From a virus: a stretch of DNA of 64,000 bases. Where the stretch lies: IMG/VR virus record IMGVR_UViG_3300048080_000333; one strand, 5' to 3'. Shown piece after piece: positions 35,480-63,010 of the stretch (positions within the stretch are counted from its first letter, which is position 1; every line of letters starts with the position of its first letter). The position numbers and the translations under genes were made by a program. The notes below the pieces were generated by a model. It was given only the letters and a program-made list of their open reading frames with translations. It did not search any database and was not told the DNA's origin.

Positions 35480-36066
35480 GCCACAAAGACGCTACTGACG
35501 ATGCAAAGTGGAACGAGCACGTTGCGTATCAGATGGCCCAAGAAGCGTATCTGGTTGATAAAAACGACCGGATGTGGCAGGCTCTGATGTCGGAACCGTG
35601 GTTCTCACTGCTTGACTTCGGCTGTGGATCCGGTCTGTGGTCGCGCTACCTCTACACAGAAGGAGCGCGATACGTCGGAGTGGACCGAAATCCGAACATG
35701 ATCGAGGCTGCGCGGACGCGGTGGGCATCCGAGCCCTCCAGGGCGTTTGTGCTCTGCGACGTACTTGCGGGGGAGCCACTGCCGTTTCCGAACGGTGACT
35801 TCGACGTTGCCGTGACTATCGCGGTGCTTCAACACAATGATTTGGACGAAAAGCCCAAGGTTCTCGCCGAGATTCGGCGGGTACTGCGACGCTACGGACG
35901 TTTGCTCATGTATGAAACGACCTACGGTCCCTTCAACCCCGGTCATACGGCTGAGGACAGCGATGACCACTGTCATTCTCAAGCAGGATGGCGAACCGTT
36001 GTCGAGCCACATGGTTTCGTATGCGTACGTCAGGAGCGTGATTTCCACGTTTTCCAAGCAATATGA
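35476..36066 (+). CDS. Class I SAM-dependent methyltransferase
   Basis: 'LLDFGCGSG', 'YVGVD', 'FDVAVT..VLQH', 'IRRVLRRYG'. Confidence 0.9.
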   Translation: MSHKDATDDAKWNEHVAYQMAQEAYLVDKNDRMWQALMSEPWFSLLDFGCGSGLWSRYLYTEGARYVGVDRNPNMIEAARTRWASEPSRAFVLCDVLAGEPLPFPNGDFDVAVTIAVLQHNDLDEKPKVLAEIRRVLRRYGRLLMYETTYGPFNPGHTAEDSDDHCHSQAGWRTVVEPHGFVCVRQERDFHVFQAI

Positions 36067-36075
36067 TGTAAAGAC

Positions 36076-36234
36076 ATGACCCAACCATCAACGGAGACCC
36101 CCACCACGAACCAGCCCAAACCCAAACCTAAACGGGATAGGCCGGTTGCTTCTCAGCAACGGGATGGTTTCCCGCTCCCGCCCGAGTGCCGTAAGGCTCT
36201 GGCGGTCCTGCGAGAACGCCTTCCCAAAGCCTAA
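36076..36234 (+). CDS. Small Pro/Lys-rich protein, 52 aa
   Basis: MTQPSTETPTTNQPKPKPKR...RLPKA; fills the gap before the promoter. Confidence 0.4.
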   Translation: MTQPSTETPTTNQPKPKPKRDRPVASQQRDGFPLPPECRKALAVLRERLPKA

Positions 36235-36258
36235 CCCCAGAATCTTTCCAGTGCCCTC

Positions 36259-36287
36259 TTGACAAATGTCTGAGGAGTGTTTAGTAT
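36259..36287 (+). promoter_or_regulatory. sigma70-type promoter TTGACA-17-TAGTAT
   Basis: Near-consensus hexamers and spacing at the boundary between late and early modules. Confidence 0.75.
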
Positions 36288-36297
36288 TGTCTCCAGG

Positions 36298-36660
36298 ATG
36301 AGAGCAGACACTGCGAGGCGACGGTACCACCGTTACTTCGGCCAGCGCGCCGAGTTCTTAGTCCGTTGGGACGACAAGGTTCATCAGATCAACGGTATCT
36401 TATGTGGAATTTGGAAAGATATCGACGGACGCTGGTCCCTAGAGTTCCGACACGCCTACATCGACTCGAAACCCTTCATGTGGAGACCCTCACGGAACGA
36501 CAAATGCCGTAAGTGTCACCGCATCTGTATCCCTATGGACCGTATCGTGGGGTTAGGGCTTAGAGACACGCAACGCAGGTTCCAAGCAGTGGGGCTTCCC
36601 TTAAAAAGCCTACTAGCACCCCAGCCTCACGATACGGTTCCTATGCCATGCCTACCTTAA
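36298..36660 (+). CDS. Hypothetical early protein
   Basis: First ATG after the promoter; 120 aa. Confidence 0.55.
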   Translation: MRADTARRRYHRYFGQRAEFLVRWDDKVHQINGILCGIWKDIDGRWSLEFRHAYIDSKPFMWRPSRNDKCRKCHRICIPMDRIVGLGLRDTQRRFQAVGLPLKSLLAPQPHDTVPMPCLP

Positions 36661-36863
36661 CGCCGAAGCCGGGGGAGACACGCGGCGAGTTTCTAGCCCG
36701 TTGGGGTAACCTGCTGGCGATTCTCCGCGCACACTACCCCGATCCCTATGCCTGGCTCGATCTCGCGCAAGAATTGCTCGATAATCTTGTTACTGCCGAA
36801 CACCGAATCGCGGAAGCCGAGGAGCGGGCGAGGATAGCGGAGGAGGAACGGGATACATTTTGA
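36648..36863 (+). CDS. Hypothetical protein
   Basis: 71 aa, C-terminal coiled coil. Confidence 0.6.
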   Translation: MPTLTPKPGETRGEFLARWGNLLAILRAHYPDPYAWLDLAQELLDNLVTAEHRIAEAEERARIAEEERDTF

Positions 36864-37150
36864 AGACGACAATGATGCCGAGACCAACGAAAGCGCAGCG
36901 GCGGGTACTCGACGATATGAAGGGTGGAGATCGTCTCATCCGGGTTCAGCGATGGGCCGGGCCAAACAGTATCCGCATCACTCTCTTTGGCCGTGGGGAA
37001 CCTTACCAGGACGTGCGATACGATACCTTCTACGCGATGAAAAAGTATGGATGGTTGGAAGTCGTGATCGACAACGGGGAGCAGTATCCGCAGTCATGGG
37101 TGTATGCGTTGAGTGCGGTAGGAAAGGTTGTTTCTGCGGGGGTGAACTGA
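36860..37150 (+). CDS. Hypothetical protein, possible winged helix
   Basis: 'TKAQRRVL...'; 'MKKYGWLE'; coupled overlaps. Confidence 0.6.
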   Translation: MKTTMMPRPTKAQRRVLDDMKGGDRLIRVQRWAGPNSIRITLFGRGEPYQDVRYDTFYAMKKYGWLEVVIDNGEQYPQSWVYALSAVGKVVSAGVN

Positions 37151-37374
37151 TGCTGAAAACCTGGCTCGTATCCAGCGGTGATTTGGACAAGGCGCGGGCG
37201 CGTGCCTATACCCCGACGGAAGCGTTCCTCATCGCTGTTGTGCTCTACACCCCCAAATCTCTTGGTATCCTTGCTATAATCGTCGAAGAGGGCTTCGAGG
37301 GTGACGAGACGAAAGAATTCTATGTCCTGACGGAGATCGTAACAACAAAGGTCCAAGAGATAGGGTATGCCTGA
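37150..37374 (+). CDS. Hypothetical protein
   Basis: TGATG overlap; 74 aa. Confidence 0.55.
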   Translation: MLKTWLVSSGDLDKARARAYTPTEAFLIAVVLYTPKSLGILAIIVEEGFEGDETKEFYVLTEIVTTKVQEIGYA

Positions 37375-37412
37375 TCTCTTCGTAACCTCCTGGCCGATGA
37401 GGGGCGACTGAT

Positions 37413-37679
37413 ATGGCCATTCAGGCCCCAGATGGTCGGCAGTTCGTCCGCTGGTCAGGCGACGACGAGATTGACGTGGATGTGAGAAACATCCTGGCCG
37501 TTTTTCACGGCCGGAGTCCGCTTGCGCTTTTCTCCGCCCTGCCTTGGCTGCTCTCGCTCATCGGCCGGGCTACCGGGGCCACAGAGGGAGAAATGGCTCA
37601 AACGCTGAACGCCATTCGTGACGAATCTCTGCGCCTTACACGGGAGGCGACTCTCATCCCTGGTTCGCGGGGGCACTAA
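37413..37679 (+). CDS. Hypothetical protein
   Basis: 88 aa. Confidence 0.55.
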   Translation: MAIQAPDGRQFVRWSGDDEIDVDVRNILAVFHGRSPLALFSALPWLLSLIGRATGATEGEMAQTLNAIRDESLRLTREATLIPGSRGH

Positions 37680-37683
37680 AACC

Positions 37684-38778
37684 ATGCCTAACGTTCTGCG
37701 CCACACTGCTGTCGAGGATTGGTTGTACGACGCCTGTCGGGCGTACCTGACCAAGACGCCCCGTACAGGTATCCACGTTAGCGACCTCCTTCTTCTTCGC
37801 AAAGCCTATTGGCAACGAGTCGAACCGAAGCCGCCGAGCCGTCGCGAAATTCTCTACTTCATGGCAGGCCGCGGCCACGAGGAAGTAGTCGTTGCGCTCT
37901 CGGGTCTCGGAGCGCATAGGAAAGCGCGAGGTGAGTGGCTTGGCCCCATAGACGAACCCTATCCGGAGGGGGACGGTATTCGGTACGAGATGGACGTGCT
38001 CTACGAAGGTGAAGACCATCCGGCGATCCCCTTTGAAATCAAGACGAATCGTCGCGCGAAAGTGATCGACGCCAAGACCGTACTCGATGACTATGCGCTT
38101 GCCGTCGACCAGTTGGGCATGTATTGTGCGATCAAGAATTTGCCTGTTGGGTACTTGTTCGAACTCCACTTGATGGCGCGGAACCTCGCGGCCGTGCCCG
38201 CCGACGCCACGGAGGCCGAACCCGAACGTCCCGCCGACGAGCCGGACCCCTATGCCTGGCTCAAGCAGAGTCGGCCCGAAATGCCCATCTACCAAATCAC
38301 CTGGACTACCGAGGAACGTGAGGCCATCCTCGCTCTTATGCCTATTCGACGGGGGATGCTGGAGTCTGCCCTCGCGGTGGGCGACCACACGGGGCTCCCA
38401 GAATGTCCCGAATGGATGTGTGGGAAGGTCCATATTCGCCGTTCAGCGCCTGTGTGTCCGATGTGTGGTACCATGTATACGGTAGGCGAGGTCAAGCCGG
38501 ACGGGAAGAAACGCGGTGTTCGGCAGTATTGCGAGACCTGTAAGGTCGGCGGCAGGCTGGTCGGCGGCCGACAGGTCGGAGGTACGAAGGTAGAACTTGT
38601 CCGCGACAGCCAGGAGATTTTCGTGCCTGGCTGCCGGTGGTGGGCATCATGCCTTCCGGCACAACACGCGAAGTACCACCAGAATTTCTGGAAACCGAAA
38701 CGGACGGGAAGCGCAGACGAAATCGAGGAAGCACCAGACGACATCACCCCTGACGACGGGGAGGAGGTAGGGGGGTGA
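37684..38778 (+). CDS. Cas4-like PD-(D/E)xK exonuclease with a zinc-ribbon insert
   Basis: 'IHVSDL...RKAY', 'GRGHEE', 'D....FEIKT', 'QLGMY', C-terminal 'C.EWMC...C.W...C'; CPMC/CETC insert. Confidence 0.75.
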   Translation: MPNVLRHTAVEDWLYDACRAYLTKTPRTGIHVSDLLLLRKAYWQRVEPKPPSRREILYFMAGRGHEEVVVALSGLGAHRKARGEWLGPIDEPYPEGDGIRYEMDVLYEGEDHPAIPFEIKTNRRAKVIDAKTVLDDYALAVDQLGMYCAIKNLPVGYLFELHLMARNLAAVPADATEAEPERPADEPDPYAWLKQSRPEMPIYQITWTTEEREAILALMPIRRGMLESALAVGDHTGLPECPEWMCGKVHIRRSAPVCPMCGTMYTVGEVKPDGKKRGVRQYCETCKVGGRLVGGRQVGGTKVELVRDSQEIFVPGCRWWASCLPAQHAKYHQNFWKPKRTGSADEIEEAPDDITPDDGEEVGG

Positions 38779-38993
38779 GTGTTTACATCCTGTTCTGGGT
38801 TGAAGAGTTCGACAACTTCATGGGAGTCTTTGCCTCTGCGGAAGCGGCCGGCCGCTATGCTGCCAACTGGGCCATGCTACCTGGAGTGGGGCGATCCCTG
38901 GTCTGGACACAACTGAGCGACGGGATATGGGGCGCTCCTGGCGATGATGAGTTTTCCGACTTCAGAATCGAACGACAGGAGGTAGGGATATGA
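38775..38993 (+). CDS. Hypothetical protein
   Basis: RBS GGAGG; 'VYIL......GVFASAEAA' small-phage-protein pattern. Confidence 0.65.
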   Translation: MSVYILFWVEEFDNFMGVFASAEAAGRYAANWAMLPGVGRSLVWTQLSDGIWGAPGDDEFSDFRIERQEVGI

Positions 38994-39265
38994 GTAAGGT
39001 GAGTCGTGCGGATGTCTATGCGGTCATCGACGGCGAGCGGGACTACCAGGACGCGAAATGGCCGAAGGAGAAGGTAAGCGACCGGCCCATCGCGACTGAA
39101 CCGACGGTGGGCGAGTCCGTCGTGCTTCTTCAGCAGTACGTGACCATGGCCATCGAGCAGTGGACGTCGCAGGTCGGCGATCAGGCGGCCCTGCATCAGA
39201 TCCGGAAGATCGCGGCCATCGCGGTGCGGTGCATGGAGTACCACGGCGCACTACCGAGGGCTTGA
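38990..39265 (+). CDS. Hypothetical helical protein (MazG-like fold possible)
   Basis: 'IDGERDYQDAKW' and 'IRKIAAIAVRCME' are recurrent phage motifs; RBS AGGAGG. Confidence 0.65.
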   Translation: MSKVSRADVYAVIDGERDYQDAKWPKEKVSDRPIATEPTVGESVVLLQQYVTMAIEQWTSQVGDQAALHQIRKIAAIAVRCMEYHGALPRA

Positions 39266-39291
39266 CAACCACCGAACACATGTTCTAATAT
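39262..39291 (+). promoter_or_regulatory. sigma70-type promoter TTGACA-18-TAATAT upstream of the replication operon
   Basis: ttgaca accaccgaacacatgttc taatat. Confidence 0.65.
39273..39286. promoter_or_regulatory. LexA (SOS) box, Gram-positive type: CGAACACATGTTCT
   Basis: Matches CGAAC-RNRY-GTTC and overlaps the promoter spacer and -10. Confidence 0.7.
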
Positions 39292-39346
39292 GGACGGAGC
39301 GGGCTGTCTCTAGATAGTTCGCAAAGTCCCCCCGAGGTGAGAATGT

Positions 39347-40168
39347 ATGAGCCGACAGTCCGAAAGTATCAAGGATCTCGCTACGGCGCTGGCTCTCGCG
39401 CAGGGTGAGATGGAGAATCCCGCCTTCGACACCGCGAACCCTTTCTTCAAGAGCCGGTATGCGAGCCTCGCCGCCGTGCTGAACACGGTCAGACCCGTGC
39501 TGGCGAAGCACGGCATCGGTGTTCTCCAGGACCTGTACACAGCGCCGGAGGGCGTCGCATGCGTTACCACCCTGTCGCACAGTAGCGGGGAATGGTGGGA
39601 GTCCAGCGTACTCGTCATGCCGGTCAGCAAGCCGGACGCCCAGGGATTCGGCTCGGCGGCCACGTATGCGCGTCGATACGCCCTCCAAGCAGTCGTAGGG
39701 GTCGCTGGCGAGGACGACGACGATGCCGAGAGCGCAGTGCGTCGTCAGGATACCGCCAAGCCTGCAGCAGCCGCCCCAGCCGCGAGGCCGGTTCCGCCCC
39801 CTGTGACACCTGTTCCCGTTGCGTCTGCGCCAGCAACGGCCGCGCCGACTCCTCCACCGCTCGCTGACAACGCGGCCAAGCCTGAGCCAACTGGCTCGAC
39901 GACATCTGTGGTTCCAGCCTCTGTCGCACCAGTCGTTGACGACACGGCGAAGGATGCAGCCCTCACGATGGATTCGGGTCCATGCGTGGACTGTGGCATC
40001 GTTCTTCCAGAGATGCACAAGAACTCCATCCTGAACAGGCGGAAACGGGGCGAGAAGTTGCGCTGGTCGCACCAGTCCGTGCCAGGCATGGACAAGTTCA
40101 AGGACGCAGAGGGGAAGTGCAACCATCCCGAGATCCTGAAGTTGGCAGGGCAGACGGCGGCGAAGTAA
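39347..40168 (+). CDS. erf: ERF-family single-strand annealing protein
   Basis: 'LATALALAQ.E..NP.FD..NPFFKSRYASL..VL..VRPVL.KHG', 'AQGFGSA.TYARRY.L....G....DDDAE'; Pro/Ala linker. Confidence 0.92.
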   Translation: MSRQSESIKDLATALALAQGEMENPAFDTANPFFKSRYASLAAVLNTVRPVLAKHGIGVLQDLYTAPEGVACVTTLSHSSGEWWESSVLVMPVSKPDAQGFGSAATYARRYALQAVVGVAGEDDDDAESAVRRQDTAKPAAAAPAARPVPPPVTPVPVASAPATAAPTPPPLADNAAKPEPTGSTTSVVPASVAPVVDDTAKDAALTMDSGPCVDCGIVLPEMHKNSILNRRKRGEKLRWSHQSVPGMDKFKDAEGKCNHPEILKLAGQTAAK

Positions 40169-40178
40169 CGGAACGACT

Positions 40179-42890
40179 GTGAACGTAGCCGTCTCTGATT
40201 CTTTAGAAGTCCTTGCGCGGGACTGGGCCGCTCTGCCGTACGCAAACGCCTCGGATAAATTCGTCCTGGGCGACGTACGGCCAGATGCTCGCGTCCTATT
40301 GATCGGCGAGGCTCCTGGTGAGGACGAGGACAACAGCGTCACGCCGGAGAAGCCCTTGGGGCAGGCGTTCATTGGACGGGCTGGCCAGCGGTTGGACTAC
40401 ACGCTCGCTGGGGTCGGCCTGCCGCGGTCCGAGGTGTCTGTCGCGAACGTAATGCCACGGCGCCCGCTTACCCCGGCGTGCGGAAAATGTGACGCCTGCC
40501 GCCGAAGTGAGGAGAATCTCTGCCCCAAGAGGGATAACCGGGAACCGACGAAGAACGAGATCAAGGCGAACGCCGACTATGTGCGACGCCTCGTCCAACT
40601 TCACCCGAACCTCAAGGTCGTTGGACTCTTGGGTGGCACCGCGTTGACGTGGTGTCGCGGCGTTGAAAAGATTGAATCGTACCGCGGAGACGAGTTCTTC
40701 GATCAGGGTATCTGGTGGGTGCCGACTTACCACCCTGCTGCGGTGCTGCGTCGGCCCTCTAACATCAAATGGTTCGTCCAGGACCTCGAATGGATCAAGA
40801 CGTTGGCAGACGGGAACCTACTGGATCTGTCCAGGCTAGAGAAAGAGATTCCGTTCGTGGACGACGGTGCTGTCCTAAGAACACAGTATTTTTCGAACAT
40901 CATCCAATCACCTTTGTCGTACGTCGACGTGGAAACGGCCGCTGACCCGCCAGCCAGTGCGTTGTGGTGGTGGGATCCTCGGGTTCGTCCCGTTCTTATT
41001 TCGTTGGCTTGGTTTGAAAACAGTCTGCCGTGCGCCGTCGTAGTCGAGGTGAACGACACGACGATCCCGGTGTTGCAGGATCTTTTCAAAGCCAAACCCG
41101 AACACTGGGTAGGGCAGAGCGTGCTGTACTACGACATCCCGCTCCTGGAGCGGTGGGGGATGTCGATGCAGTGCGAGCGGTCCGTCATCGACTCTTATCC
41201 TATCGCGCGGCTGAACGATGAGAACCGTGGCTGTGGACTCAAGGACCTTGCGAAGCACCACCTTCGGGTCGTGAACTACACGCCCTGGTGGGGCGACGCG
41301 GCAGGCGAGGCGTGGCACCTAGACTGGATCAGGTGGCCCGAAATGTCGGCCGTCGAGCGAACCGAGCGAGTTGCTTACTCGGGCAAGGATGCCCTCGTGG
41401 GTATTCAGGTCGCTCAAATCGAGGCCGACCGTCTGCGGCGCACACCGGACCTCGTACAGGCCTACAAGGATCTCGCAGTATGGCAGGCCCGGGCCGTCAC
41501 CGAGATGAGTAGAGTCGGTATGCCATTAGACATCGAGGCCGCCGTGTTGCGGGCGCTGTTTCTAGCATCGGAGATGGCCGAGGTTGACCAGAGGCTTCAG
41601 ACCATTGTGCCGGACGAGGCCAAGAAGCCGAAGAAGGCCCGGCGGCGGAAAGGCGAACCTGAACCGTCTCTGGAGTACGAACGAATCAACTTGGGGTCCT
41701 ACGTCCAAATCTCCAGGCTGTTGTTCACGGTCGCGGGCCTTCCGAAGGGCAAGACCACATCGAAGGGTGATAAGGAATCCACGGACATCTTCGCGCTACT
41801 TCGGGTTCTCGGCATGAAGGACTCCCTGCCCGATGCGCCTCCGTGGGCGTTCGATCTTATTGAGGGTGTCTTGAAACATCGCGCACTGGAGAAGAAGAAG
41901 GGGTACGTCGAGGCACTGGTCGACGCCGCTTCGTTGTCGCATGACGGTCGTGTTCATTCGACGTTCAAAGCGGGTCCTGTTACCTGGCGAATCGCATCGG
42001 AAGATCCGAATATACAGCAACTCCCGGGTGACATCAAGGAACTCTTCGTGGCCCCGGAAGGCTGGACATTTGTGAAATTTGATGTGAGCGGCTTAGAGGT
42101 GTGTGGGCTCGCCGACCAGGCCCCGGAACAAAAACTTGTCCACCGCATCAGGGCTGGTGAGGATTTGCATTGGCGCCACGCCTGTAGTATCATGGGATGG
42201 GATTACGATGTCGTTCCGAAAGATGCGGATGGTAAGCCTATCCCACAGACGGACCTGCAGAAGCAGACGCGGAAAGCCATTAAGACGTTGTTCTTTGCTT
42301 CTGGGTACGGTGGTGGGCCAAACAAGTTGGCCGATACGCTCCGCGAAGACTTCTACAAAGCGGGTATCGGGCTCGACGTCGTTGCAGAGATTCTTACTGC
42401 ACGGGGCGTCAAACCAGGCAAGGACCCGTTCCGCACCTTGGCCGAGGTATGGCTGAAGTGGCTCGACACCGAATACCCGACCCTCAAGAAAGCATTCCGC
42501 CGTATCGCGGCGGAAACGGCCAAGCGCGGCTACGTTCGTGGTAAGTTCCACATCGAACGCCGGCTCCCCGAGATCAGGGACTACGACGACTCGATGCGGA
42601 TGGAGGCCGAGCGCCAGGCCTACAACTTTACCCCTCAGAACCTGTCGTGCCTGACCTTCCTGGCCTACCGTGAACTCTGGAAGATTCGGCGCGATATGGA
42701 GTTGGAGGATTCGGTTTTTCTGGTTGTTCAAGAGCACGACTCGAAGGTATGGCTCGTACGCGAGGAGGTAGCGGGGCTGTGGGCACCCGTCGTGAAGCAC
42801 GTCATGGAAAATCCGAATTGGGACGAGTGGGGGGCAACGTTTCTCGTTCCGATTCGAGTCGAAGGACAGATGGATCGACAGTGGCATTAG
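40179..42890 (+). CDS. Family A DNA polymerase with N-terminal uracil-DNA glycosylase-like and 3'-5' exonuclease domains
   Basis: UDG: 'LIGEAPGEDED...FIGRAG', 'PTYHPAAVLR'. Exo: 'YVDVET', 'YYDIP', 'YSGKD'. Pol motif A 'DVSGLE', B 'RKAIKTLFFASGYG', C 'EHD'. Confidence 0.92.
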   Translation: MNVAVSDSLEVLARDWAALPYANASDKFVLGDVRPDARVLLIGEAPGEDEDNSVTPEKPLGQAFIGRAGQRLDYTLAGVGLPRSEVSVANVMPRRPLTPACGKCDACRRSEENLCPKRDNREPTKNEIKANADYVRRLVQLHPNLKVVGLLGGTALTWCRGVEKIESYRGDEFFDQGIWWVPTYHPAAVLRRPSNIKWFVQDLEWIKTLADGNLLDLSRLEKEIPFVDDGAVLRTQYFSNIIQSPLSYVDVETAADPPASALWWWDPRVRPVLISLAWFENSLPCAVVVEVNDTTIPVLQDLFKAKPEHWVGQSVLYYDIPLLERWGMSMQCERSVIDSYPIARLNDENRGCGLKDLAKHHLRVVNYTPWWGDAAGEAWHLDWIRWPEMSAVERTERVAYSGKDALVGIQVAQIEADRLRRTPDLVQAYKDLAVWQARAVTEMSRVGMPLDIEAAVLRALFLASEMAEVDQRLQTIVPDEAKKPKKARRRKGEPEPSLEYERINLGSYVQISRLLFTVAGLPKGKTTSKGDKESTDIFALLRVLGMKDSLPDAPPWAFDLIEGVLKHRALEKKKGYVEALVDAASLSHDGRVHSTFKAGPVTWRIASEDPNIQQLPGDIKELFVAPEGWTFVKFDVSGLEVCGLADQAPEQKLVHRIRAGEDLHWRHACSIMGWDYDVVPKDADGKPIPQTDLQKQTRKAIKTLFFASGYGGGPNKLADTLREDFYKAGIGLDVVAEILTARGVKPGKDPFRTLAEVWLKWLDTEYPTLKKAFRRIAAETAKRGYVRGKFHIERRLPEIRDYDDSMRMEAERQAYNFTPQNLSCLTFLAYRELWKIRRDMELEDSVFLVVQEHDSKVWLVREEVAGLWAPVVKHVMENPNWDEWGATFLVPIRVEGQMDRQWH

Positions 42891-43111
42891 ATAGTGCTAT
42901 CCTGGCAAAGGAAGCCGAGCGGCGAGTGTTGGCTGAGATCGGTTCTGTTGCCCGCGGTCTGCACCGACGGCGGAGTGCCAGCGAGGCAGGCCAGGTGGAC
43001 CGCGCCGAGCGTGCTGCACGGGAAGCCATCGAGTACAGGTTGGACAAGTTGTGGGAGCGGCTCCGTAGGGTAAGATTTTTGGGGCGCCCCGAAGAGGCCG
43101 ATGAAGCATGA
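42881..43111 (+). CDS. Hypothetical helical protein
   Basis: GTG start overlapping the polymerase end; 76 aa. Confidence 0.5.
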   Translation: MALDSAILAKEAERRVLAEIGSVARGLHRRRSASEAGQVDRAERAAREAIEYRLDKLWERLRRVRFLGRPEEADEA

Positions 43112-43554
43112 GTGTGGTCAGATTTCGCGCGTATGGGATCCCACAGAGCCAGGGCAGCATGCGAGCCTTCCTGCCCAAGGGAGGAAAGTTTCCAATTGTG
43201 ACGCACCAAAAATCACCGGCGTTGAAGGCATGGCGTGAAGTCGTTGCGCTCGCGGTCCCGAAAGGCACGATACTCGATGGACCAGTGTGTGTGACCTTGG
43301 AGTTCTACATGCCCATCCCGAAGTCGCGGCCCAGGATTCTGCACACGGAGAAGCAGCGGTTAGAGTGGACGTGGCCCGCAAAACAACCAGACCTCGATAA
43401 AATGATTCGGGCCATTCTTGACGCGCTCACCGGGGTCGTATTCCATGACGACAGTCAAGTGGTCCATCTGGTGAGCCGCAAACAGTATGGGAACGAACCC
43501 GGCGTCGAAGTGTGGGTGACACAGTACGCCCCCACAGAAAAGGACGGTACGTAG
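43108..43554 (+). CDS. rusA: RusA-like Holliday junction resolvase
   Basis: 'GIPQSQGS', 'GPVCVTLEFY.P.P', 'KQPDLDKMIRAILDALTG..FHDDSQVV'. Confidence 0.92.
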   Translation: MSVVRFRAYGIPQSQGSMRAFLPKGGKFPIVTHQKSPALKAWREVVALAVPKGTILDGPVCVTLEFYMPIPKSRPRILHTEKQRLEWTWPAKQPDLDKMIRAILDALTGVVFHDDSQVVHLVSRKQYGNEPGVEVWVTQYAPTEKDGT

Positions 43555-45158
43555 TGAACCCGTCGGACCTGTTCGGTCTTCAGGCCGTTCTGGACGGCGC
43601 GGAGCCGTGGGCTATCTGTCTCGGGGATTGCGTGGATCTGATGCTGGCCATGCCTGACGACTCGGTGGACGCTGTTGTGTGCGACCCGCCCTATGGGTTG
43701 GAGTTCATGGGGAAGGAGTGGGACAGGCTAGGGGCGCCCGAGGGATTTCGTCGGAGAGACAATCCGGAGGATGCCGGTCGTGAGAATGTGTTCGGACGCA
43801 CGACGAGGACAGGACCAGAGTACACCACCGGAGCGGGCAGAAAGAGCAAACCGGGAATCGGAGAAAGACAGATCGAATGGCCTCATCAGCAGGGATGGAA
43901 TGCTCGAAGATGCTCCAATTGTGGACATCTGAGCCACGGCGGTTCGCCGTGCAAGTGTGGAAAAGGGCTGTTCGTCGCGGCGGATGACCGTTGGAACCGA
44001 ATGCAAGAGTGGCACTTCCGTTGGGCCGTCGAAGCCTTCCGTGTTCTGAAGCCGGGAGGGCACCTGATCGCATTCGGAGGATCGCGGACATATCACCGCC
44101 TCGCCTGCGCGGTCGAGGACGCGGGGTTTGAGATTCGGGATCAACTGCAGTGGCTGTACGGGAGTGGGTTCCCGAAAAGCAAATCTATGAGAGACATCGG
44201 GCGGCCCGAACTCGGCACGTCCCTGAAGCCCGCCCACGAGCCTATCGTCTCGGCCCGCAAGCCCTTGTCGGAACCGACCGTCGCCGCCAACGTCTTGAAG
44301 TGGGGGACGGGGGCGTTGAATGTGGATGGGTGCAGAATCGGACTGGACGGCGAAAAACTGCCTACTGGCAGTGGCGCTCCATCGGAGGGGCGTGCTCGAA
44401 CAAACGAGGGTGGGGAATTGCGAGGAACTGGAGGGAATCAAACAAACACATTGGGTCGCTGGCCAGCGAACCTCTTGCTCTCGCACTCGTCGGAGTGCGT
44501 CCAAGTCGGGACCGCACCTGATAAGTATGTCACGAATGTACGGCTGGTAGCCGGGGCCGAGAAGCATTCTGATGGGTGGGGTACGAAGCCAATGGAGACC
44601 GGCGAAGTTGAGGGAGTGCGGGAGGTGTGGGCCTGCGTCCCCGGCTGCCCCGTGAGGGTGCTGGACGAACAGAGCGGCTCGTCTCGCAGCACCAAGGGCA
44701 AGCCGAGGAAGGGCCGGAAGGGCGCAGGTTGGGGTATGGAGCATACTGGAACGGAGCATGCGGATTCTGGCGGCGCCTCCCGCTTTTTCTACATCGCAAA
44801 AGCAAACCGCTCGGAGCGTGAGGAAGGTCTCCGAGGCCATATCGCCTGCGTGAAGTGTGGGGGTGTCGACACGACCGAACATCCGACCACGCATGGAGCA
44901 GAGAACTGTATACGGAACAACCATCCAACCGTGAAGCCCATAGACCTAATGCGTTACCTCTGCCGGCTCGTCACGCCCCCGGGAGGTCTTGTCCTCGATC
45001 CATTCGCGGGCTCGGGTACGACCGGCATCGCCGCGGCGCTCGAATCCTGTCGCTTCCTCGGCTTCGAGCAGGAGCCCGGATATGTCGAAATCGCCCGAGT
45101 CCGTATCCGACATTGGGCAGAGCAAAATATGCAGATCGAACTTTCTGTAGGAGCATAG
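43554..45158 (+). CDS. N6-adenine/N4-cytosine DNA methyltransferase (beta class) with Cys-rich inserts
   Basis: 'DPPYGLEFMG', 'RVLKPGGHL', 'W.YGSGFPK', 'HPTVKP..LM.YL', 'VLDPFAGSGTT'. Confidence 0.93.
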   Translation: MNPSDLFGLQAVLDGAEPWAICLGDCVDLMLAMPDDSVDAVVCDPPYGLEFMGKEWDRLGAPEGFRRRDNPEDAGRENVFGRTTRTGPEYTTGAGRKSKPGIGERQIEWPHQQGWNARRCSNCGHLSHGGSPCKCGKGLFVAADDRWNRMQEWHFRWAVEAFRVLKPGGHLIAFGGSRTYHRLACAVEDAGFEIRDQLQWLYGSGFPKSKSMRDIGRPELGTSLKPAHEPIVSARKPLSEPTVAANVLKWGTGALNVDGCRIGLDGEKLPTGSGAPSEGRARTNEGGELRGTGGNQTNTLGRWPANLLLSHSSECVQVGTAPDKYVTNVRLVAGAEKHSDGWGTKPMETGEVEGVREVWACVPGCPVRVLDEQSGSSRSTKGKPRKGRKGAGWGMEHTGTEHADSGGASRFFYIAKANRSEREEGLRGHIACVKCGGVDTTEHPTTHGAENCIRNNHPTVKPIDLMRYLCRLVTPPGGLVLDPFAGSGTTGIAAALESCRFLGFEQEPGYVEIARVRIRHWAEQNMQIELSVGA

Positions 45159-47375
45159 ATGAGCGAATCCCCGGACATGTTGGAAGCGGTCCTCGCGTTG
45201 CGGGAACGGGGATTTTCTGTCATTCCCATTCACTATCCGGACATGGACCTCGACGATCTTCCGGTAAATGTTCGTGTACGTGTCGACCCCGGAAGTAAGG
45301 AGTATAACGAGCGCGACATCGGTAAACTGCCACTTGTGCCCTGGGAAGGGTACCAGACCACTCTTGCCAAACCCGGTGAGGTAGAGAACTGGTGGGGGGC
45401 GAAGCGGAAGTGGAAGGTCGCCCCGAACATCGCGGTCGTCTGCGGTAAGATAAGCGACATCTTTGTCGTTGATGCTGACGGTGAATCCGCGCTAGCCTAT
45501 ATGGCGAGCCTACACGTTGCCCCTGGATTTACGTTGACAGCCAAAACGGGCCGGCCGCACGGCCACCAGTTCTACTTTCGATGGCCCGGCTTCGAGGTCA
45601 GCAACAGTCTAGGACAAATCATGCCCGGTTTGGACATCAAGGGAGATGGGGGCTATGTGATTGCGCCTCCGTCTCGGCATCGCTTAGGTGTTGACTATGC
45701 TTGGATCGAGGGTATTGACGAGCCTCTGTTCGCGCCGGAGGAACTCCTAGAAGTCATTCGTCAAGCGGCCAAGCGGAAACAACAGAAAATTGCGCTGCCC
45801 CCAGAAGAAATCACGCGGCTGTTGACTGGACCCATCCCCGATGGACAGCGACATAACGACGCAAAACGACTCTTCGCGCATCTCGTGGCCATCGGAACGC
45901 CGGAGCGAGCCACGCGCGAGTTCGCGTTGTCCTGGGGCCAAACGGTTTGTAAGCCTCCGGCGGATAACGAACATCTCCAAAAGATTGTCACTTGGGCGTT
46001 GGATCAAGAATCCTCAAAACGGCGGAATCCCGAGGAGCCCAAGTTCGTGCGCCAGGGAGATGATTTTGAGTTCGAGTGGTCGGATCTCGGTATCCGTGCT
46101 AGTTTGAAGGACATCCGACATACTGGCGGGCGGCTTCAAGGGTCGTTGAGCATCACATCGGATGCAACGGGCGATATTCACTTCGGCGATATTGTGTTAG
46201 GAAGCACATCTGCACGTGAGGAATTAGCACATCCGACCCGCGGCAAATTGGTTCGTAAGCGTAGCGACATCAACTGGGACGCTATGCTCGAACGGATCTG
46301 TCGGATCGCTACGGCGAGGTATCGAGAAGGCGGTCCCGTCATAAAACTCCAGCCCTCTCTGTCACCTATCGGCTATGAATTCATTCGATACTTGATGCCG
46401 GGCAAAGAAATCACAATCGGCCTTGGAGACGGTGGAGCAGGGAAAAGCACTATTGCTGCTGCTCTTTGCGTGGCCGTAGTTCTTGGGAAATCTCTACCAT
46501 GTGGTGTCGTTCCGCGAAAGATCGGCAAGGCACTCTATCTCGATTGGGAATCCCAGCCGGACGAGCATCAGGATCGGCTCGCGGCTCTTTTGCGTGGCCA
46601 CTTTGACCATACTGGGGCTCCGCCGGATCTGTACTACCGCCGGATGACGCGGCCCATTTGGGACGAGGTTGCGTTTCTCAGGTCAAAAATCGCGGAGATC
46701 GCTGGCGGCACAGAAAAGATGGACGAGGTGTTGGTTATCGTTGACTCCTACGCGCCAGCAGCGGGCCGGGATCCCGAAAGTGCGGATGCTGCCATCGCCG
46801 TCATGTCGGCCCTACACGCGCTTGGACCCGCGACGGTGTTTCTGATCTGCCACGTCTCGAAGGAAGCGGCCGAACGGCAAGGTGGTGCCCAACGACCTTA
46901 CGGCAGCGTCTTCCTGTACAATCTCGCTCGTTCCGTATGGGAGATTCGTGCATCGAGTGATACAGACATTCCGGGGAACTTTCTACAGGTGCGGTTCAAC
47001 CATAGGAAGTCCAACAGGGGCCGGCGCTACCCGCCTTTCAATTGGCGTCTCGACTACCAGGAGGAAAAAGACCCCGAGACAGGAGAAGAGCGGACGGTAA
47101 GCATCACCATCTCCAAAGATGATTCTCCAGTCCTTGCGTCGCCTTGGGAAAAGATTCTATCTTACCTCCGCCATCACGAACGGGGAACACCTAACCAAAT
47201 CACTGCCTTCTACGATGGTCTTAACTGGGAAACGGTGAGAAAAACGATGGCGAAGATGCTTCGGTACAAGACTATTGTAAAAGTGGATGAAACAGAGAAT
47301 CAGGAACATGTCTACGCCCTCGCGGCTCCGAAAGGTTTGGACGAATCCCAAGCACCGCCGGAGGGACAACTGTGA
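45159..47375 (+). CDS. Bifunctional primase-polymerase fused to a RecA-like (AAA_25) helicase
   Basis: 'GFSVIP', 'NIAVVCG..S..FVVDAD', 'GH.FYF', 'DIKGDGGYV.APPS.H'; Walker A 'GDGGAGKS'; Walker B 'VIVDS'. Confidence 0.9.
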   Translation: MSESPDMLEAVLALRERGFSVIPIHYPDMDLDDLPVNVRVRVDPGSKEYNERDIGKLPLVPWEGYQTTLAKPGEVENWWGAKRKWKVAPNIAVVCGKISDIFVVDADGESALAYMASLHVAPGFTLTAKTGRPHGHQFYFRWPGFEVSNSLGQIMPGLDIKGDGGYVIAPPSRHRLGVDYAWIEGIDEPLFAPEELLEVIRQAAKRKQQKIALPPEEITRLLTGPIPDGQRHNDAKRLFAHLVAIGTPERATREFALSWGQTVCKPPADNEHLQKIVTWALDQESSKRRNPEEPKFVRQGDDFEFEWSDLGIRASLKDIRHTGGRLQGSLSITSDATGDIHFGDIVLGSTSAREELAHPTRGKLVRKRSDINWDAMLERICRIATARYREGGPVIKLQPSLSPIGYEFIRYLMPGKEITIGLGDGGAGKSTIAAALCVAVVLGKSLPCGVVPRKIGKALYLDWESQPDEHQDRLAALLRGHFDHTGAPPDLYYRRMTRPIWDEVAFLRSKIAEIAGGTEKMDEVLVIVDSYAPAAGRDPESADAAIAVMSALHALGPATVFLICHVSKEAAERQGGAQRPYGSVFLYNLARSVWEIRASSDTDIPGNFLQVRFNHRKSNRGRRYPPFNWRLDYQEEKDPETGEERTVSITISKDDSPVLASPWEKILSYLRHHERGTPNQITAFYDGLNWETVRKTMAKMLRYKTIVKVDETENQEHVYALAAPKGLDESQAPPEGQL

Positions 47376-47563
47376 GCCTTGACTACGCCGTGGAGCAGTT
47401 GGCGCGGGAACTGAGACAGCGATTCGGTCTGCCGGACGAACAGGCCCGTATGGTCGCGCAGTGGCACCTCATCCGGGTGGCTCAGGCCGTGGCTATCGTG
47501 ACGGTAGAACGAATCAACCAGGATCTCATCCGTTTCAACAGGCGGGGGGTTCAGGATGTCTAA
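47372..47563 (+). CDS. Hypothetical protein
   Basis: GTGA overlap; 63 aa. Confidence 0.55.
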   Translation: MSLDYAVEQLARELRQRFGLPDEQARMVAQWHLIRVAQAVAIVTVERINQDLIRFNRRGVQDV

Positions 47564-47900
47564 TCCATTTCGGCACCTCTGGCTATGGATGCTTCGGTCC
47601 TGGGAGGGCCTGACATCTCAACGTCCACCCTGGGAAGAAGGTGTCGTACTGTGGTACAGTCCGACGAAGCGGTATGGCTACATTCGATGTCCACGCCGAC
47701 TCGATCTCTCACCAGATTCGACGGCTGATGGTGGCGATGTGTTCTTCGACGACGAAGCCCTTCCGAATTTTGGGGTACGGTCCCCTGTCATGGATGAACG
47801 AGTGCGTTTTGTCATTAGACCCGAGACACGGTCTTGGCGTGTACGTTCGGCGTTTGAAATCAGGGAGAGGAACGACAATTCGAATGGGGAGGTAGGGTAG
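47556..47900 (+). CDS. Cold-shock-domain (OB-fold) nucleic-acid-binding protein
   Basis: 'GVVLWYSPTKRYGYI' (RNP1-like), 'DVFF', 'ERVRFVI'. Confidence 0.7.
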   Translation: MSNPFRHLWLWMLRSWEGLTSQRPPWEEGVVLWYSPTKRYGYIRCPRRLDLSPDSTADGGDVFFDDEALPNFGVRSPVMDERVRFVIRPETRSWRVRSAFEIRERNDNSNGEVG

Positions 47901-47901
47901 C

Positions 47902-48291
47902 ATGGCGTACAATCTTGTGGTGTTAGAGGGGCGACTGACGAAAGACCCTGAACTGCGCTACATCCCGAGTGGACAGCCCGTGGCGTCGTTTACGCTTGCC
48001 GTGGACCGTTCGTACGTGCAGGAGGGTAAGGAGCGGGAGACGGATTTCGTCGATATCATAGCCTGGAGGAAGTTGGCGGAGACGGTCTCCCAGCATCTTC
48101 AGAAGGGTTCGTATGTTCTGGTCCAGGGCCGTCTTCAGATACGGGCCTACGAAACCCAGGATGGGCAGAAGCGAAAGGTCACCGAGATCGTCGCAACCGA
48201 GATCCGGTTCCTTGGCCCGAAGCCGAAGGGTGCCACCGGCGAATCTGCTGCGCCCTCGACGCACGGGATTAATGAGGACGTTCCGTTCTAA
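47902..48291 (+). CDS. ssb: Single-stranded DNA-binding protein
   Basis: 'NLVVLEGRLTKDPELRY...VASFTLAVDR', 'WRKLAE....L.KGS.V.VQGRLQ'; acidic 'EDVPF' tail. Confidence 0.96.
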   Translation: MAYNLVVLEGRLTKDPELRYIPSGQPVASFTLAVDRSYVQEGKERETDFVDIIAWRKLAETVSQHLQKGSYVLVQGRLQIRAYETQDGQKRKVTEIVATEIRFLGPKPKGATGESAAPSTHGINEDVPF

Positions 48292-48294
48292 GGC

Positions 48295-48324
48295 TTGACA
48301 ATGGGGGCGCAGATGCTCTATCAT
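48295..48324 (+). promoter_or_regulatory. sigma70-type promoter TTGACA-18-TATCAT, probably leaderless
   Basis: ATG 48331 lies 6 nt after the -10; no Shine-Dalgarno in between. Confidence 0.6.
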
Positions 48325-48330
48325 ACGTCT

Positions 48331-48837
48331 ATGCGATGCACATTCGGGCTTCTGTTAATCGCTGCTCTGGCCGCCGCATGCGCCCCCACCGATATTTCCC
48401 AGGAGGCCGCGTATACCCTTCGGGGTCCTTACATCCCACCCAACGCCTACTGGCCCCGGGGACGGCAGATAGAGGTTACGGCGACCATGTACAATTGTGT
48501 AGCCGCCCAGACCGACAGCACCCCCTGGATCACAGCGTCCGGAATGCCGTGTGGACACAATACTGTCGTCATCACACCTGAAGGGCGCGTTGTGTCTGCG
48601 GGTCCGGCCCAGTTCCCTCCCGAGTACAGCGTCCGAGTGGGCGTTCTTGGGGTGAGTAGGGACCTGCTGAAAGAGTTGCCGTTTGGGACACAGGTCGTCG
48701 TGTATGGACGGACCTACGTCGTTGGTGACACGATGGCCGCCCGGTGGCGACGCCGCATAGACATTCCGCATCCGACCTACAGGGGTGCGATGCTCCATGG
48801 TGTCAGGAGAAAAGTCATTATGGAGGTCCATAGATGA
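48331..48837 (+). CDS. 3D-domain (MltA/RlpA-like) lipoprotein
   Basis: Lipobox 'LLLIAALAAAC'; 'VTATMY', 'ITASG', 'VSRDLL..LPFGT.V', 'VVGDTM......IDI'. Confidence 0.8.
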   Translation: MRCTFGLLLIAALAAACAPTDISQEAAYTLRGPYIPPNAYWPRGRQIEVTATMYNCVAAQTDSTPWITASGMPCGHNTVVITPEGRVVSAGPAQFPPEYSVRVGVLGVSRDLLKELPFGTQVVVYGRTYVVGDTMAARWRRRIDIPHPTYRGAMLHGVRRKVIMEVHR

Positions 48838-49328
48838 GCGCAGTAAAAGTTACGCCACGTCTGGGCTATGCCGGGCGGGCCTCACGCCTCCCCAACGGCC
48901 GTGGTGTGATCGAACCCGTACAACTACCCGTAGACGACGCGATTCTTGGACTGTCTCCACCGTCTCCGTGGGTGCCCCCCCTAGCCTATGTTGCGAGTGG
49001 CTATACGCTTCGCCGTTCGGTTGAATTCCGGCGTGCGTTGCAGGTGGTCCAGGAATTAGGGTATCTGCTTTCGTATCGGTGGTGGGAAAACGAAGAGTCT
49101 ACTACCGAGAAAGCCATGGAGGATTTGGTCGGTGTTATGCGAGCCGACATCCTCGTGGTCGTCATGCCGTATGCCAACTTCATCTACCGGGGGACCTGGG
49201 TGGAAATCGGCGCGGCGCTGGCACTGAACAAGCCGGTGTACATTGTCGGAGATGTGCCTGATTCCCAGTGCATCTTTTTCCTGTTGCCCAATGTTCATCG
49301 TGGGTACCCACCAGAGGTGACACGTTGA
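48834..49328 (+). CDS. Nucleoside 2-deoxyribosyltransferase-like protein (copy 1)
   Basis: 'YVAS', 'DL.GV..ADILVV', 'RGTWVEIGAALALNKPV'. Confidence 0.8.
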   Translation: MSAVKVTPRLGYAGRASRLPNGRGVIEPVQLPVDDAILGLSPPSPWVPPLAYVASGYTLRRSVEFRRALQVVQELGYLLSYRWWENEESTTEKAMEDLVGVMRADILVVVMPYANFIYRGTWVEIGAALALNKPVYIVGDVPDSQCIFFLLPNVHRGYPPEVTR

Positions 49329-49741
49329 AACGGCGGACGGAAACTGGAGACTCCACGAATCCAAAAGACCTCATCGGGCTGACGAAGTGCCCGCTGAGGC
49401 TGGTTCCGCCGGCACTGATGATCGTCGCGGCGCCGGCGATGGCTGAGGGAGCACAGAAGTATGGCGCCTATAACTGGCGGGCCAAGAAGGTTCGCTACAC
49501 CGTCTATCTAGAAGCCATCATGCGTCATGTTTTGGGCCTGATGGACCGTGAAGACATCGCGGTGGACTCCGGGATCCATCACTTGGCACACATCGCCGCG
49601 AACGCTGGTATCATCGCCGATGCGATGGCTGGTGGGCAACTGATCGACGACCGACCGGCTCCTGGTCCAGCGGCAGCCATGCTGCAGCAGCAGAACAGGC
49701 CGAAGAAGGACGTTCCAACCAAACCTATTCGGAGGACCTAA
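49325..49741 (+). CDS. dATP/dGTP diphosphohydrolase-domain protein (DUF5664-type)
   Basis: 'K.PL.LVPP', 'GAQKYGAYNWR', 'Y..AIMRH', 'EDIAVDSGIHHLAH'. Confidence 0.88.
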   Translation: MKRRTETGDSTNPKDLIGLTKCPLRLVPPALMIVAAPAMAEGAQKYGAYNWRAKKVRYTVYLEAIMRHVLGLMDREDIAVDSGIHHLAHIAANAGIIADAMAGGQLIDDRPAPGPAAAMLQQQNRPKKDVPTKPIRRT

Positions 49742-49742
49742 C

Positions 49743-50021
49743 GTGCCAAGACGCAACGGTCCAACCAGCCCGCCGCCGAACGTGAATATCGTGCGTCTCT
49801 TGGTGGCCGCCGTGTCCGGTCCCCCCGACGATGAGGGGATGACCGCCCAAGAACTAGCGGTCGAGAGTGGCCAAACGGTTGACACTGTACAGCGCCGGCT
49901 AAAAACCCTGGAAGTCCAGGGACGCCTTATCATCGGTTTTCGTCGGGGTAAGGATTCGCGGGGCCGGAACTATCGTTTTCCGGTATATCGTCTCAGGAAG
50001 GAAACAGATGAAAAGAAATAA
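49743..50021 (+). CDS. Winged-helix DNA-binding protein
   Basis: 'MTAQELAVESGQTVDTVQRRLKTL...GRL' followed by a beta-wing. Confidence 0.75.
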   Translation: MPRRNGPTSPPPNVNIVRLLVAAVSGPPDDEGMTAQELAVESGQTVDTVQRRLKTLEVQGRLIIGFRRGKDSRGRNYRFPVYRLRKETDEKK

Positions 50022-51210
50022 GGCAAACGATCAAACACTTATCCACGCTTTGCAGGACAAATCCGAGCCGGGGCAACCCCGAGATGTCGCTTCACTGCTC
50101 AAGCGGCTCGGACAGGTGAACGCCGAACTGGATCGCGAACGCGACAAGAGCGCAATCATCGCGCAGGCCATCGCACAGGTCGTTGCGGCCCTCCCGGTCC
50201 TGGAGCCTTTTTCTCCTATTCCAAAAACAATAGGTGGGGGAACGCCGCACGTCGCCATGCTGGATATCTCCGATGTCCACATAGGCGAGTTCGTAGATCC
50301 CATCTTGACCGGAGGTCTCAGCGAGTATAACTTCACGCTGTTCAAAGCACGGGGGGATCGGCTACGTCACGGGTTTAGCCGTATCGTGGACATTCACCGC
50401 CGCGCCTATCCGGTGGATGATCTCTATGTAAATTTTCTCGGCGACATTGTGACCGGCGAGGCGATCTACCGTGGACAAGCGTTTCAAATCGACATGCCTC
50501 TCCTCCAGCAGGTCTTCGAGGGGGGCTATTGGTTCGCCAACCTGCTCCGCGAGATGTCACAGATGTTCAAAACGGTCCATGTTCGGTGCGTCGCCGGAAA
50601 CCATGGACGGGGCTACGAACGCGGTCAGAATCACCCTCGAACCAATTGGGACATCGCTGTCTACATGCTCCTTAAGATGCTTGTAGCCGAGCATACCAAC
50701 GTGGACATTGAACTCGCCGAGACTTCGTATCTTGTGTACAGTGTTCCTGGTCACGAGCAGTTTCGGCATGCACTCATTCACGGAGACCAAGCCCGGTCGT
50801 GGATGGGCATTCCCTTCTATGGGATGGAGCGGGCTGGGGCCAAGATGCAGTCCATGCTGGGCATCCCGCTGGACTACGTCCATGCTGGGCACCACCACAA
50901 CGAAGCAGAGTGGCCGTCGAACCGCGTCGAATTTATGCTCAACGGCTCATGGGTCGGAGGGTCCGACCTGTCCGTGAACAAAATGTTTCGGACATCGCGC
51001 CCAACACAGAACCTGTTCTTCTGTCATCCTCGACGCGGGATCGTTGCGTCGTACCGTGTTCAGTTGGAAGACGTGGTGGAACTCCAACCGGATGTTCGGG
51101 GGATCTACAAGCCCGTTACCGACACTGCACCCAGTCCACCTGCGGCGCCCAAGCCGGCCCGGGGTGGACGTCGTGCCGGGGCTGGCCGGCCCCCCCGGAG
51201 GGTAACCTGA
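50008..51210 (+). CDS. Calcineurin-like metallophosphoesterase
   Basis: 'SDVHIG', 'GDIV', 'GNHG', 'HGD', 'GHHH'; N-terminal coiled coil. Confidence 0.9.
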   Translation: MKRNKANDQTLIHALQDKSEPGQPRDVASLLKRLGQVNAELDRERDKSAIIAQAIAQVVAALPVLEPFSPIPKTIGGGTPHVAMLDISDVHIGEFVDPILTGGLSEYNFTLFKARGDRLRHGFSRIVDIHRRAYPVDDLYVNFLGDIVTGEAIYRGQAFQIDMPLLQQVFEGGYWFANLLREMSQMFKTVHVRCVAGNHGRGYERGQNHPRTNWDIAVYMLLKMLVAEHTNVDIELAETSYLVYSVPGHEQFRHALIHGDQARSWMGIPFYGMERAGAKMQSMLGIPLDYVHAGHHHNEAEWPSNRVEFMLNGSWVGGSDLSVNKMFRTSRPTQNLFFCHPRRGIVASYRVQLEDVVELQPDVRGIYKPVTDTAPSPPAAPKPARGGRRAGAGRPPRRVT

Positions 51211-51980: not shown

Positions 51981-52360
51981 GCCTGGCCTACTACTCACAC
52001 TGTATGGCCCTCTATGGGACGCCGCAGGAAGTCAGGGACGTCGCGTTGTTGGAGGCGCTTGGCTTCGACGTGGACAACCCCAACAATCCGGTGACTGCTA
52101 CTAGATGTCTGTCGTTGCACGAATCCGGGGTGGACTCCGGGGCCATCATGGAGCGAGTCTTCAAACCCCGCGCCGAAACCTGCGATGTGCTCGTGTTCCG
52201 CGCCCTTCCGGACGGCAGCATTCCGGCCGGCGTGGCGAAGGAGATCGAATGGGCTCTGGCGGCCGGGAAGCCGGTCATCGAGTTGCCTTCGGGCTTTCGC
52301 CGGCGCGTCCTGACGGTGGAACAGACGAGGGAGTACCTTGCCGAGGTGGGACAGAGATGA
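51977..52360 (+). CDS. Nucleoside 2-deoxyribosyltransferase-like protein (copy 2)
   Basis: 'AYYSH', 'CDVLVF', 'GVAKEIEWALAAGKPV'. Confidence 0.65.
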   Translation: MSLAYYSHCMALYGTPQEVRDVALLEALGFDVDNPNNPVTATRCLSLHESGVDSGAIMERVFKPRAETCDVLVFRALPDGSIPAGVAKEIEWALAAGKPVIELPSGFRRRVLTVEQTREYLAEVGQR

Positions 52361-53403: not shown

Positions 53404-53404
53404 G

Positions 53405-63008: not shown

Positions 63009-63010
63009 TT

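Follow-up and report, generated by a model that had tools for sequence, protein, structure and literature searches.

Putative host-LexA operators on three early promoters of a large temperate tailed phage

Three early promoters of a large tailed phage each carry a LexA-type box, and we consider it reasonably probable, judging from the sequence, that these boxes serve as operators for the LexA repressor of the host while the phage leads a temperate life. The first-pass annotation had proposed that host LexA may gate replication of this phage, and the LexA part of that proposal has gained ground on three counts: a LexA-type box lies on what appears to be a real promoter and recurs in three promoter-bound copies; it matches the CGAAC-N4-GTTYG boxes found at lexA and recA in the likeliest host phylum, the Sysuimicrobiota; and the erf promoter of the phage and the recA promoters of that phylum have a box-in-spacer design in common. 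The window, by which we mean the whole 64,000-nucleotide stretch of viral DNA presented here, was extended by 6.86 kb beyond its end through a 100% identical Logan contig, so that the analysis covers a total of 70.9 kb of a contig of 96,749 bp.

LexA-type boxes and the promoters that carry them

The first box (site 1) lies in the promoter of the erf operon, where the earlier reading of a palindrome inside a TTGACA-18-TAATAT promoter at 39262-39291 was confirmed. The -35 hexamer TTGACA, as read from the sequence, occupies 39262-39267 on the plus strand, the -10 region covers 39284-39291 with TAATAT at 39286-39291 (spacer 18), and the 14-bp box CGAACACATGTTCT fills 39273-39286 within the spacer, with its GAAC-N4-GTTC core at 39274-39285 and its centre at about -18.5. 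The -10 region can also be read in an alternative register, as TCTAAT at 39284-39289 with a spacer of 16 and a TG two bases upstream (39281-39282), and in either register the right arm of the box overlaps it. This promoter belongs to an 81-bp gap between a 91-aa ORF (38990-39265), whose TGA stop sits within the -35 hexamer, and the start of erf at 39347, one of the few true intergenic gaps in a tightly packed plus-strand gene array. Behind it lies an operon of nine genes that abut or overlap (39347-48291, plus strand), in the order erf, UDG-PolA, a 76-aa ORF, rusA, an N6/N4 DNA methylase, a Prim-Pol/AAA_25 primase-helicase, two small ORFs and ssb. The gene content originally assigned to this operon agrees with its Pfam matches (ERF, UDG+DNA_pol_A, RusA, N6_N4_Mtase, Prim-Pol+AAA_25 and SSB).

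Sites 2 and 3 lie on the minus arm. Site 2, at 63216-63229, is a perfect 14-bp box, CGAACGTGTGTTCG, separated by 3 nt from the end of a RuvB-like gene. Beside it is a minus-strand promoter, TTGACA-16-TAAACT (63185-63212); on the upstream side of this promoter the GTTC arm of the box stops 4 nt short of the -35 hexamer, which places the box centre at about -44.5. The layout thus reads CGAACACACGTTCG, GGA, TTGACA, 16 nt, TAAACT. The genes behind it (61439-63163, minus strand) encode a 50-aa basic ORF (63011-63163), a 316-aa ORF (62058-63008) and a 210-aa ORF (61439-62071), for which Pfam, PHROG and NCBIfam gave no match. The 210-aa ORF is followed by a called ORF of 66 aa (about 61242-61442), likewise of no family.

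Site 3, AGAACACACGTTCG, was found in the extension, 5.9 kb past the window end (L015 964-977, or approximately 69883-69896 on the scale of the window), as part of the minus-strand arrangement AGAACACACGTTCG-GGC-TTGACA-16-TATGCT (L015:964-1008; approximately 69852-69896). Its layout equals that of site 2, with the box again ending 4 nt upstream of the -35 hexamer and centred at about -44.5, and the two sites have GTTCGGGMTTGACA in common, which extends past the box itself. The operon that follows opens with a 377-aa ORF, after which come several small ORFs, a protein of the excisionase family (TIGR01764, above cut-off) and an Xer-like tyrosine recombinase (PF00589+PF02899); a RuvB-like gene is its last member. 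An integrase, which the first-pass annotation had suggested looking for elsewhere in the genome, was found just outside the window, together with an excisionase and behind site 3; because both are present on the minus arm, the phage is equipped as a temperate one.

The RuvB-like gene at the end of this operon (63233-64000, minus strand) encodes a phage-type AAA+ protein of 344 aa, the C-terminal 255 aa of which fall in the window. A reading of this match as a host gene, with the window end as a prophage junction, was rejected, both because identity to cellular RuvB is as low as about 25-30% and because every genome of the candidate host phylum carries a normal RuvB of its own besides.

Several other features of this part of the genome deserve mention. 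Where the minus arm starts, a divergent control region contains iteron-like direct repeats, three 49-bp units around GGGAAGTT/GAAGTTT (L015:278-441; window scale approximately 70419-70582), with a near-box, GCAAACTTTTTTTCGG, beside them at L015 461-476; the repeats may serve as an origin, as a partition site or as an array for a regulator. A comparison of the far end of the minus arm with Rfam gave no family, and no tRNA genes were found in the window. In the early region, a ClpP-family protease gene (256 aa) is closely followed by a gene for a trypsin-like serine protease (257 aa; 51210-53130 together), a pair unlike the usual prohead protease context.

All three sites are 14-bp palindromes with GAAC and GTTC arms, a 4-nt gap and an RNRY-type centre, in line with the CGAAC-N4-GTTCG consensus of LexA of the Bacillota, Actinomycetota and Chloroflexota type (PMC4551915). 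Each is also in close contact with a core promoter, site 1 touching the -10 region from within the spacer and sites 2 and 3 ending 4 nt from the -35 hexamer, and the three boxed promoters rank among the strongest early promoters of the phage.

How often such boxes would arise by chance depends on how much of the motif is counted. The original estimate for the 8-base core, about one per 65 kb, was about right, as 1.58 copies of GAAC-N4-GTTC are expected in the window; 3 are present, a number reached in 22/100 shuffles, so this count alone is not significant. What had been offered as evidence instead, that two in-window copies both abut TTGACA promoters, holds, and the same is true of a further copy outside the window: two of the 3 in-window copies, together with site 3, sit at perfect TTGACA promoters. 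The remaining in-window copy (35593-35604) falls within a methyltransferase gene, its centre is not of the RNRY type and no promoter is close by; it is probably a chance occurrence. The longer sequence common to all three sites, GAACACAYGTTC, is expected 0.012 times in 70.9 kb from base composition and is seen three times. Only eight matches to TTGACA-N16-18-TAnnnT occur in the 70.9 kb, and 3/8 of these promoters bear a box. Given three copies of GAACACAYGTTC, all on TTGACA promoters, against an expectation of 0.012, we regard the box motif as a real regulatory element.

A position-specific scoring matrix (PSSM) built from 15 boxes at lexA and recA in the candidate host phylum gave a similar picture when scored over 70,859 phage positions, with site 2 ranking first (18.5 bits), site 1 second (16.8 bits) and site 3 fifth. 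Five positions scored at least 13 bits, compared with 0.71 expected, and five were reached in 0/300 simulations. The matches at 58502, 59766 and 51084 lie within genes or have no nearby promoter, and were set aside as chance or weak matches. Among near-boxes, CGAAAAAATGTTCG at 58503-58516 (one arm mismatch, 14.8 bits) belongs to the 3' end of the thyX gene; the next gene starts 60 nt further on, and promoter hexamers are absent nearby.

These numbers make it highly improbable that the boxes bind nothing specific and are either palindromes that arose by chance or mere passengers of promoter duplication. Such an explanation would draw on the unremarkable count of GAAC-N4-GTTC in the window (3 versus 1.58), on the likeness of sites 2 and 3, which could be a single duplicated promoter, and on the nearest relative of the erf region, which is without the box. 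Chance is nevertheless hard to reconcile with three copies against 0.012 expected, all of them on promoters, and with a PSSM excess that no simulation reproduced. Nor can duplication explain site 1, because its promoter architecture differs from that of sites 2 and 3 and yet it carries the same 12-mer, with one Y position differing.

The probable host and its SOS boxes

Among the sequencing runs searched, the DNA of the window was found in one sediment metagenome only, its source, and no RNA runs containing the phage sequence were listed. Cultured phages gave no nucleotide match and best protein matches of about 25% identity, a level at which this comparison is uninformative on the host.

More telling are three sets of genes that converge on one phylum. 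Relatives of the RuvB-like/integrase module were detected in only 2 of approximately 185,000 species genomes, the metagenome-assembled genomes G001 (61% and 39% identity) and G047 (55% and 37%). Both belong to one phylum of 94 genomes, and the LexA of G001 shares 75-80% identity with its counterpart in Ca. Fervidifonticultor, a member of the Sysuimicrobiota (formerly CSP1-3). This phylum inhabits sediments, soils, groundwater and hot springs, and its founding description does not mention phages (PMC11604079).

The phage SSB (ssb, 47902-48291) is 61-68% identical at the protein level, and 70-74% at the DNA level, to chromosomal ssb of the Sysuimicrobiota. As counted from the listing of matches, about 88/94 genomes of the phylum match it at E<=1e-42 and 92/94 at 1e-25; the stricter threshold was reached by 0/151 Chloroflexota, 1/151 Bacillota and 0/151 Actinomycetota genomes (1/453 in total), making phage ssb a useful host marker for the Sysuimicrobiota. 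Domains 39-44% identical to the primase-helicase occur in 2/94 Sysuimicrobiota genomes (E<=1e-63), located on unrelated elements rather than related prophages, and in 0/401 Actinomycetota genomes at E<=1e-30. CRISPR-spacer-like matches between the candidate phylum and a 20-kb stretch of the window (36001-56000) reached only 26/28 to 27/29 bases, with chance-level E-values. With the RuvB-like/integrase module, the SSB and the primase-helicase all converging on it, the uncultivated phylum Sysuimicrobiota (CSP1-3) is the probable host.

The SOS boxes of this phylum closely resemble those of the phage. In 11/11 regions, from G001 and its ten closest relatives, CGAAC-N4-GTTTGC lies upstream of lexA, and in 4/5 Sysuimicrobiota genomes the recA promoter has the form TTGACA-NN-CGAACATTTGTTTG-G-TAnnnT. 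The 14-bp recA box is thus placed inside the spacer, 2 nt past TTGACA and 1 nt before the -10 hexamer, the same design as at phage erf. Cellular and phage boxes have the same arms and RNRY-type centres; they differ in that the cellular ones contain one GTTT arm (CGAAC-N4-GTTTG), whereas the phage ones combine GAAC and GTTC arms and come nearer to a perfect palindrome. Because of this greater symmetry, the phage boxes would be predicted, if the usual rule holds, to bind LexA more tightly and to be derepressed later in the SOS response.

Two further observations concern the promoters and LexA proteins of this lineage. The early plus-strand phage promoters at 39262 and 48295 have GGCTTGACAA in common, and TTGACAA occurs in the one at 36259; AGGCTTGACAAG, from the recA promoter of G001, may be compared with them. 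G001 also carries two LexA paralogues with 52% identity to each other; upstream of the gene for the second (L018, G001:C40) lie the GTAC-N4-GTTC boxes CGTACGTACGTTCG and CGTACGTTTGTTCG. We take these boxes to be hybrids of a Gram-positive half-site and a cyanobacterial half-site. Two paralogues with distinct boxes suggest two SOS regulons in G001.

Predicted control of the three operons and known systems

Host identity, LexA binding, repression and induction are what we infer from these sequences rather than observe, and they combine into a simple scheme. At the erf promoter a bound LexA dimer would block RNA polymerase, because the box takes up the spacer and reaches the -10 region; at both minus-strand promoters, the -35 hexamer would fall within a LexA footprint of some 20 bp centred near -44.5. 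In an undamaged lysogen, LexA would hold low the excisionase/integrase/RuvB-like operon, the operon of the 50-, 316- and 210-aa ORFs, and the replication operon containing erf, PolA, primase and ssb. Upon DNA damage, activated RecA would trigger self-cleavage of LexA, and all three operons would be derepressed together. Single boxes spread over separate promoters fit a global regulator and not a clustered phage immunity operator.

The gating of replication proposed by the first-pass annotation has fared less well than the LexA reading. A box-free promoter, TTGACA-17-TAGTAT (36259-36287), lies upstream of the erf operon on the same strand, and no terminator was found between it and erf; the erf operon may therefore also receive read-through transcripts. 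The closest erf relative, moreover, has another palindrome in its promoter. A second promoter free of the box, at 48295-48324, lies just past ssb.

That host LexA can act directly on phage promoters has been established before. In the Bacillus thuringiensis tectivirus GIL01, host LexA represses the early promoter P1 through dinBox1, which fits CGAAC-N4-GTTCG, and dinBox1 mutants cannot lysogenise (PMC4551915); the phage protein gp7 is reported to assist LexA at P1 (PMC4551915; PMC6182141). In GIL01, as in the phage described here, a CGAAC-N4-GTTCG-type box thus lies at an early promoter of replication genes in a temperate phage in which no classical CI is recognised, and cleavage of LexA would lead to induction. 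The two differ in other respects. GIL01 is maintained as a 15-kb linear plasmid prophage, while the present phage is tailed, about 97 kb in size, and has an integrase and an excisionase; dinBox1 is downstream of the transcription start, while the boxes here occupy the spacer (site 1) or the region just upstream of the -35 hexamer (sites 2 and 3); and the present boxes, which are putative operators, are spread across three separate operons, unlike in GIL01. GIL01 also encodes gp6, no homologue of which was found in the 70.9 kb.

To our knowledge, lysogeny by LexA alone has been demonstrated only for GIL01, a small tectivirus. That host LexA, possibly with a small co-factor, would likewise maintain lysogeny here, with no CI-type repressor involved, is a subset of the explanation we favour, and in our judgement a decidedly unlikely one: it envisages a Sysuimicrobiota phage of about 97 kb that would dispense with a repressor of its own and depend on host LexA at three high-affinity boxes, on the excision/integration, RuvB-like and replication operons. 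In its favour, the box is present on three early operons, including those for xis/int and replication; an integrase and an excisionase are present, and the 70.9 kb contain no recognised repressor family; and XRE-type HTH genes are present in two relatives of the RuvB-like module that have no box. Against it, 27% of the contig lies beyond the 70.9 kb read, the promoters at 36259 and 48295 are box-free, the divergent control region with its many iterons, at the far end of the minus arm, hints at additional regulators, and a gp7-like partner is not recognisable by sequence among many small ORFs of no family. If this stricter version were true, it would be among the first phage-host regulatory links for the Sysuimicrobiota.

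Two other bodies of work bear on the host-LexA reading more generally. Coliphage 186 encodes Tum, an antirepressor under LexA control. Gifsy prophages similarly have antirepressors under LexA control (PMC3121763). In these phages, and by prediction in ours, host LexA acts directly on a phage promoter and couples induction to the SOS response; in Gifsy and 186, however, LexA controls one small antirepressor gene whose product inactivates a phage repressor, while here it is the replication and excision operons themselves whose promoters carry the boxes. A survey of 49,333 genomes with PSOSP predicted SOS-dependent prophages from LexA boxes in prophage promoters (PMC12527982), following the same logic as applied here, in which the box upstream of host lexA serves as the reference against which prophage promoters are scored. 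PSOSP worked with complete genomes of cultured bacteria and a known host, whereas our case involves an inferred uncultivated phylum and a free metagenomic contig.

What is new is the setting: the phage is large and tailed, excision and replication are among the functions of three operons predicted to be regulated together, and the probable host comes from an uncultivated phylum. The gain is one of breadth rather than kind. If the boxes are real LexA operators, they would point to SOS-coupled induction in a lineage without cultured members, and the motif, together with a few host-like genes (SSB and the recombinase/RuvB-like module), would tie a metagenomic phage to a candidate phylum. The reading also predicts that the three promoters should respond to one host repressor, which could be tested in a heterologous Gram-positive host, since the LexA consensus is common to Bacillus subtilis.

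Boxes in related elements and the case for a phage regulator

The nearest relative of the erf region comes from Hainich groundwater (L005/L012), with an Erf 59-72% identical and an adjoining 386-aa gene 73% identical to those of the phage; no erf relatives were found in species genomes, and those in IMG/VR and JGI metagenomes were all too distant save for this one. It has a promoter at the same position, TTGACA-17-TAGAAT, in which the LexA-type box is not conserved; instead, its spacer (L005:3610-3660 / L012:430-465) contains CGTCCGCCATGGGACGC, a different and imperfect palindrome. This looks like an operator swap, and the spacer of the erf promoter would seem to be a place that receives operators.

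Among the elements with a related RuvB-like module, a chromosomal island, L107, contains CGAACGGGCGTTCC-GA-TTGACG-18-TACGAT directly before an xis-like ORF, an integrase and a RuvB-like gene, and this is its only exact box across 21 kb; relative to the phage, the arms are conserved and the centre and accessory genes differ. The G047 island (L109) has one box 295 bp upstream, and in L113 a perfect CGAACATATGTTCG occurs at another place in the element. No exact box was found in three other module relatives (L001, L111 and L112), of which L111 and L112 are those with XRE-type HTH genes. In this small sample, arms that stay the same while centres and accessory genes vary are more readily explained by a host factor than by a repressor private to each element.

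The same comparison weighs on a rather unlikely alternative, namely that the boxes are operators of a regulator encoded by the phage and not of host LexA. Such a regulator, either a repressor encoded beyond the 70.9 kb or an unannotated small protein, would repress erf from -18.5 and either repress or activate the minus-strand promoters from -44.5, in the manner of lambda CI at PR and PRM. The different palindrome in the same spacer of the nearest erf relative would be consistent with this, as if each phage had its own repressor-operator pair, and the similarity of sites 2 and 3 beyond the box (GTTCGGGMTTGACA) could reflect a duplicated phage promoter cassette. There would also be room for the gene, as about 26 kb of contig beyond the 70.9 kb read could encode a repressor with this box specificity and most small ORFs of the minus arm are of no family. 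A precedent exists in gp6 of GIL01, a LexA homologue reported to act on phage promoters (PMC6182141).

Several observations nevertheless favour host LexA over a phage regulator. As the first-pass annotation had noted for the window, no CI-type repressor was recognised there, and this extends to the 70.9 kb of the 96,749-bp contig, in which no CI-type, S24 or XRE repressor domains were found; a tblastn search of the 70.9 kb likewise gave no LexA homologue (all E>0.2). The operators are single and dispersed rather than clustered at a divergent switch, and an activator role at -44.5 is unlikely because all three promoters already have perfect -35 hexamers. The L107 island keeps the same arms at the same position despite its other accessory genes, and the identical motif is found at lexA and recA of the candidate host itself. 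Separately, a small ORF with a wHTH at 49743-50021 was considered as a LexA relative and found to be unrelated to LexA.

The pairing of a diverged RuvB-like AAA+ gene with a tyrosine recombinase recurs in small integrative islands and phage-like elements (L107, L109/L110, L073/L082 and L111-L113), often near tRNA, tmRNA or smpB genes, and in L112 a serine resolvase takes the place of the tyrosine recombinase beside the RuvB-like gene. Downstream of the RuvB-like gene in the G001 island (L001:4850-5100), an ORF starts with YDVGISF...DE, which resembles the start of a TIR domain and possibly marks a candidate defence gene.
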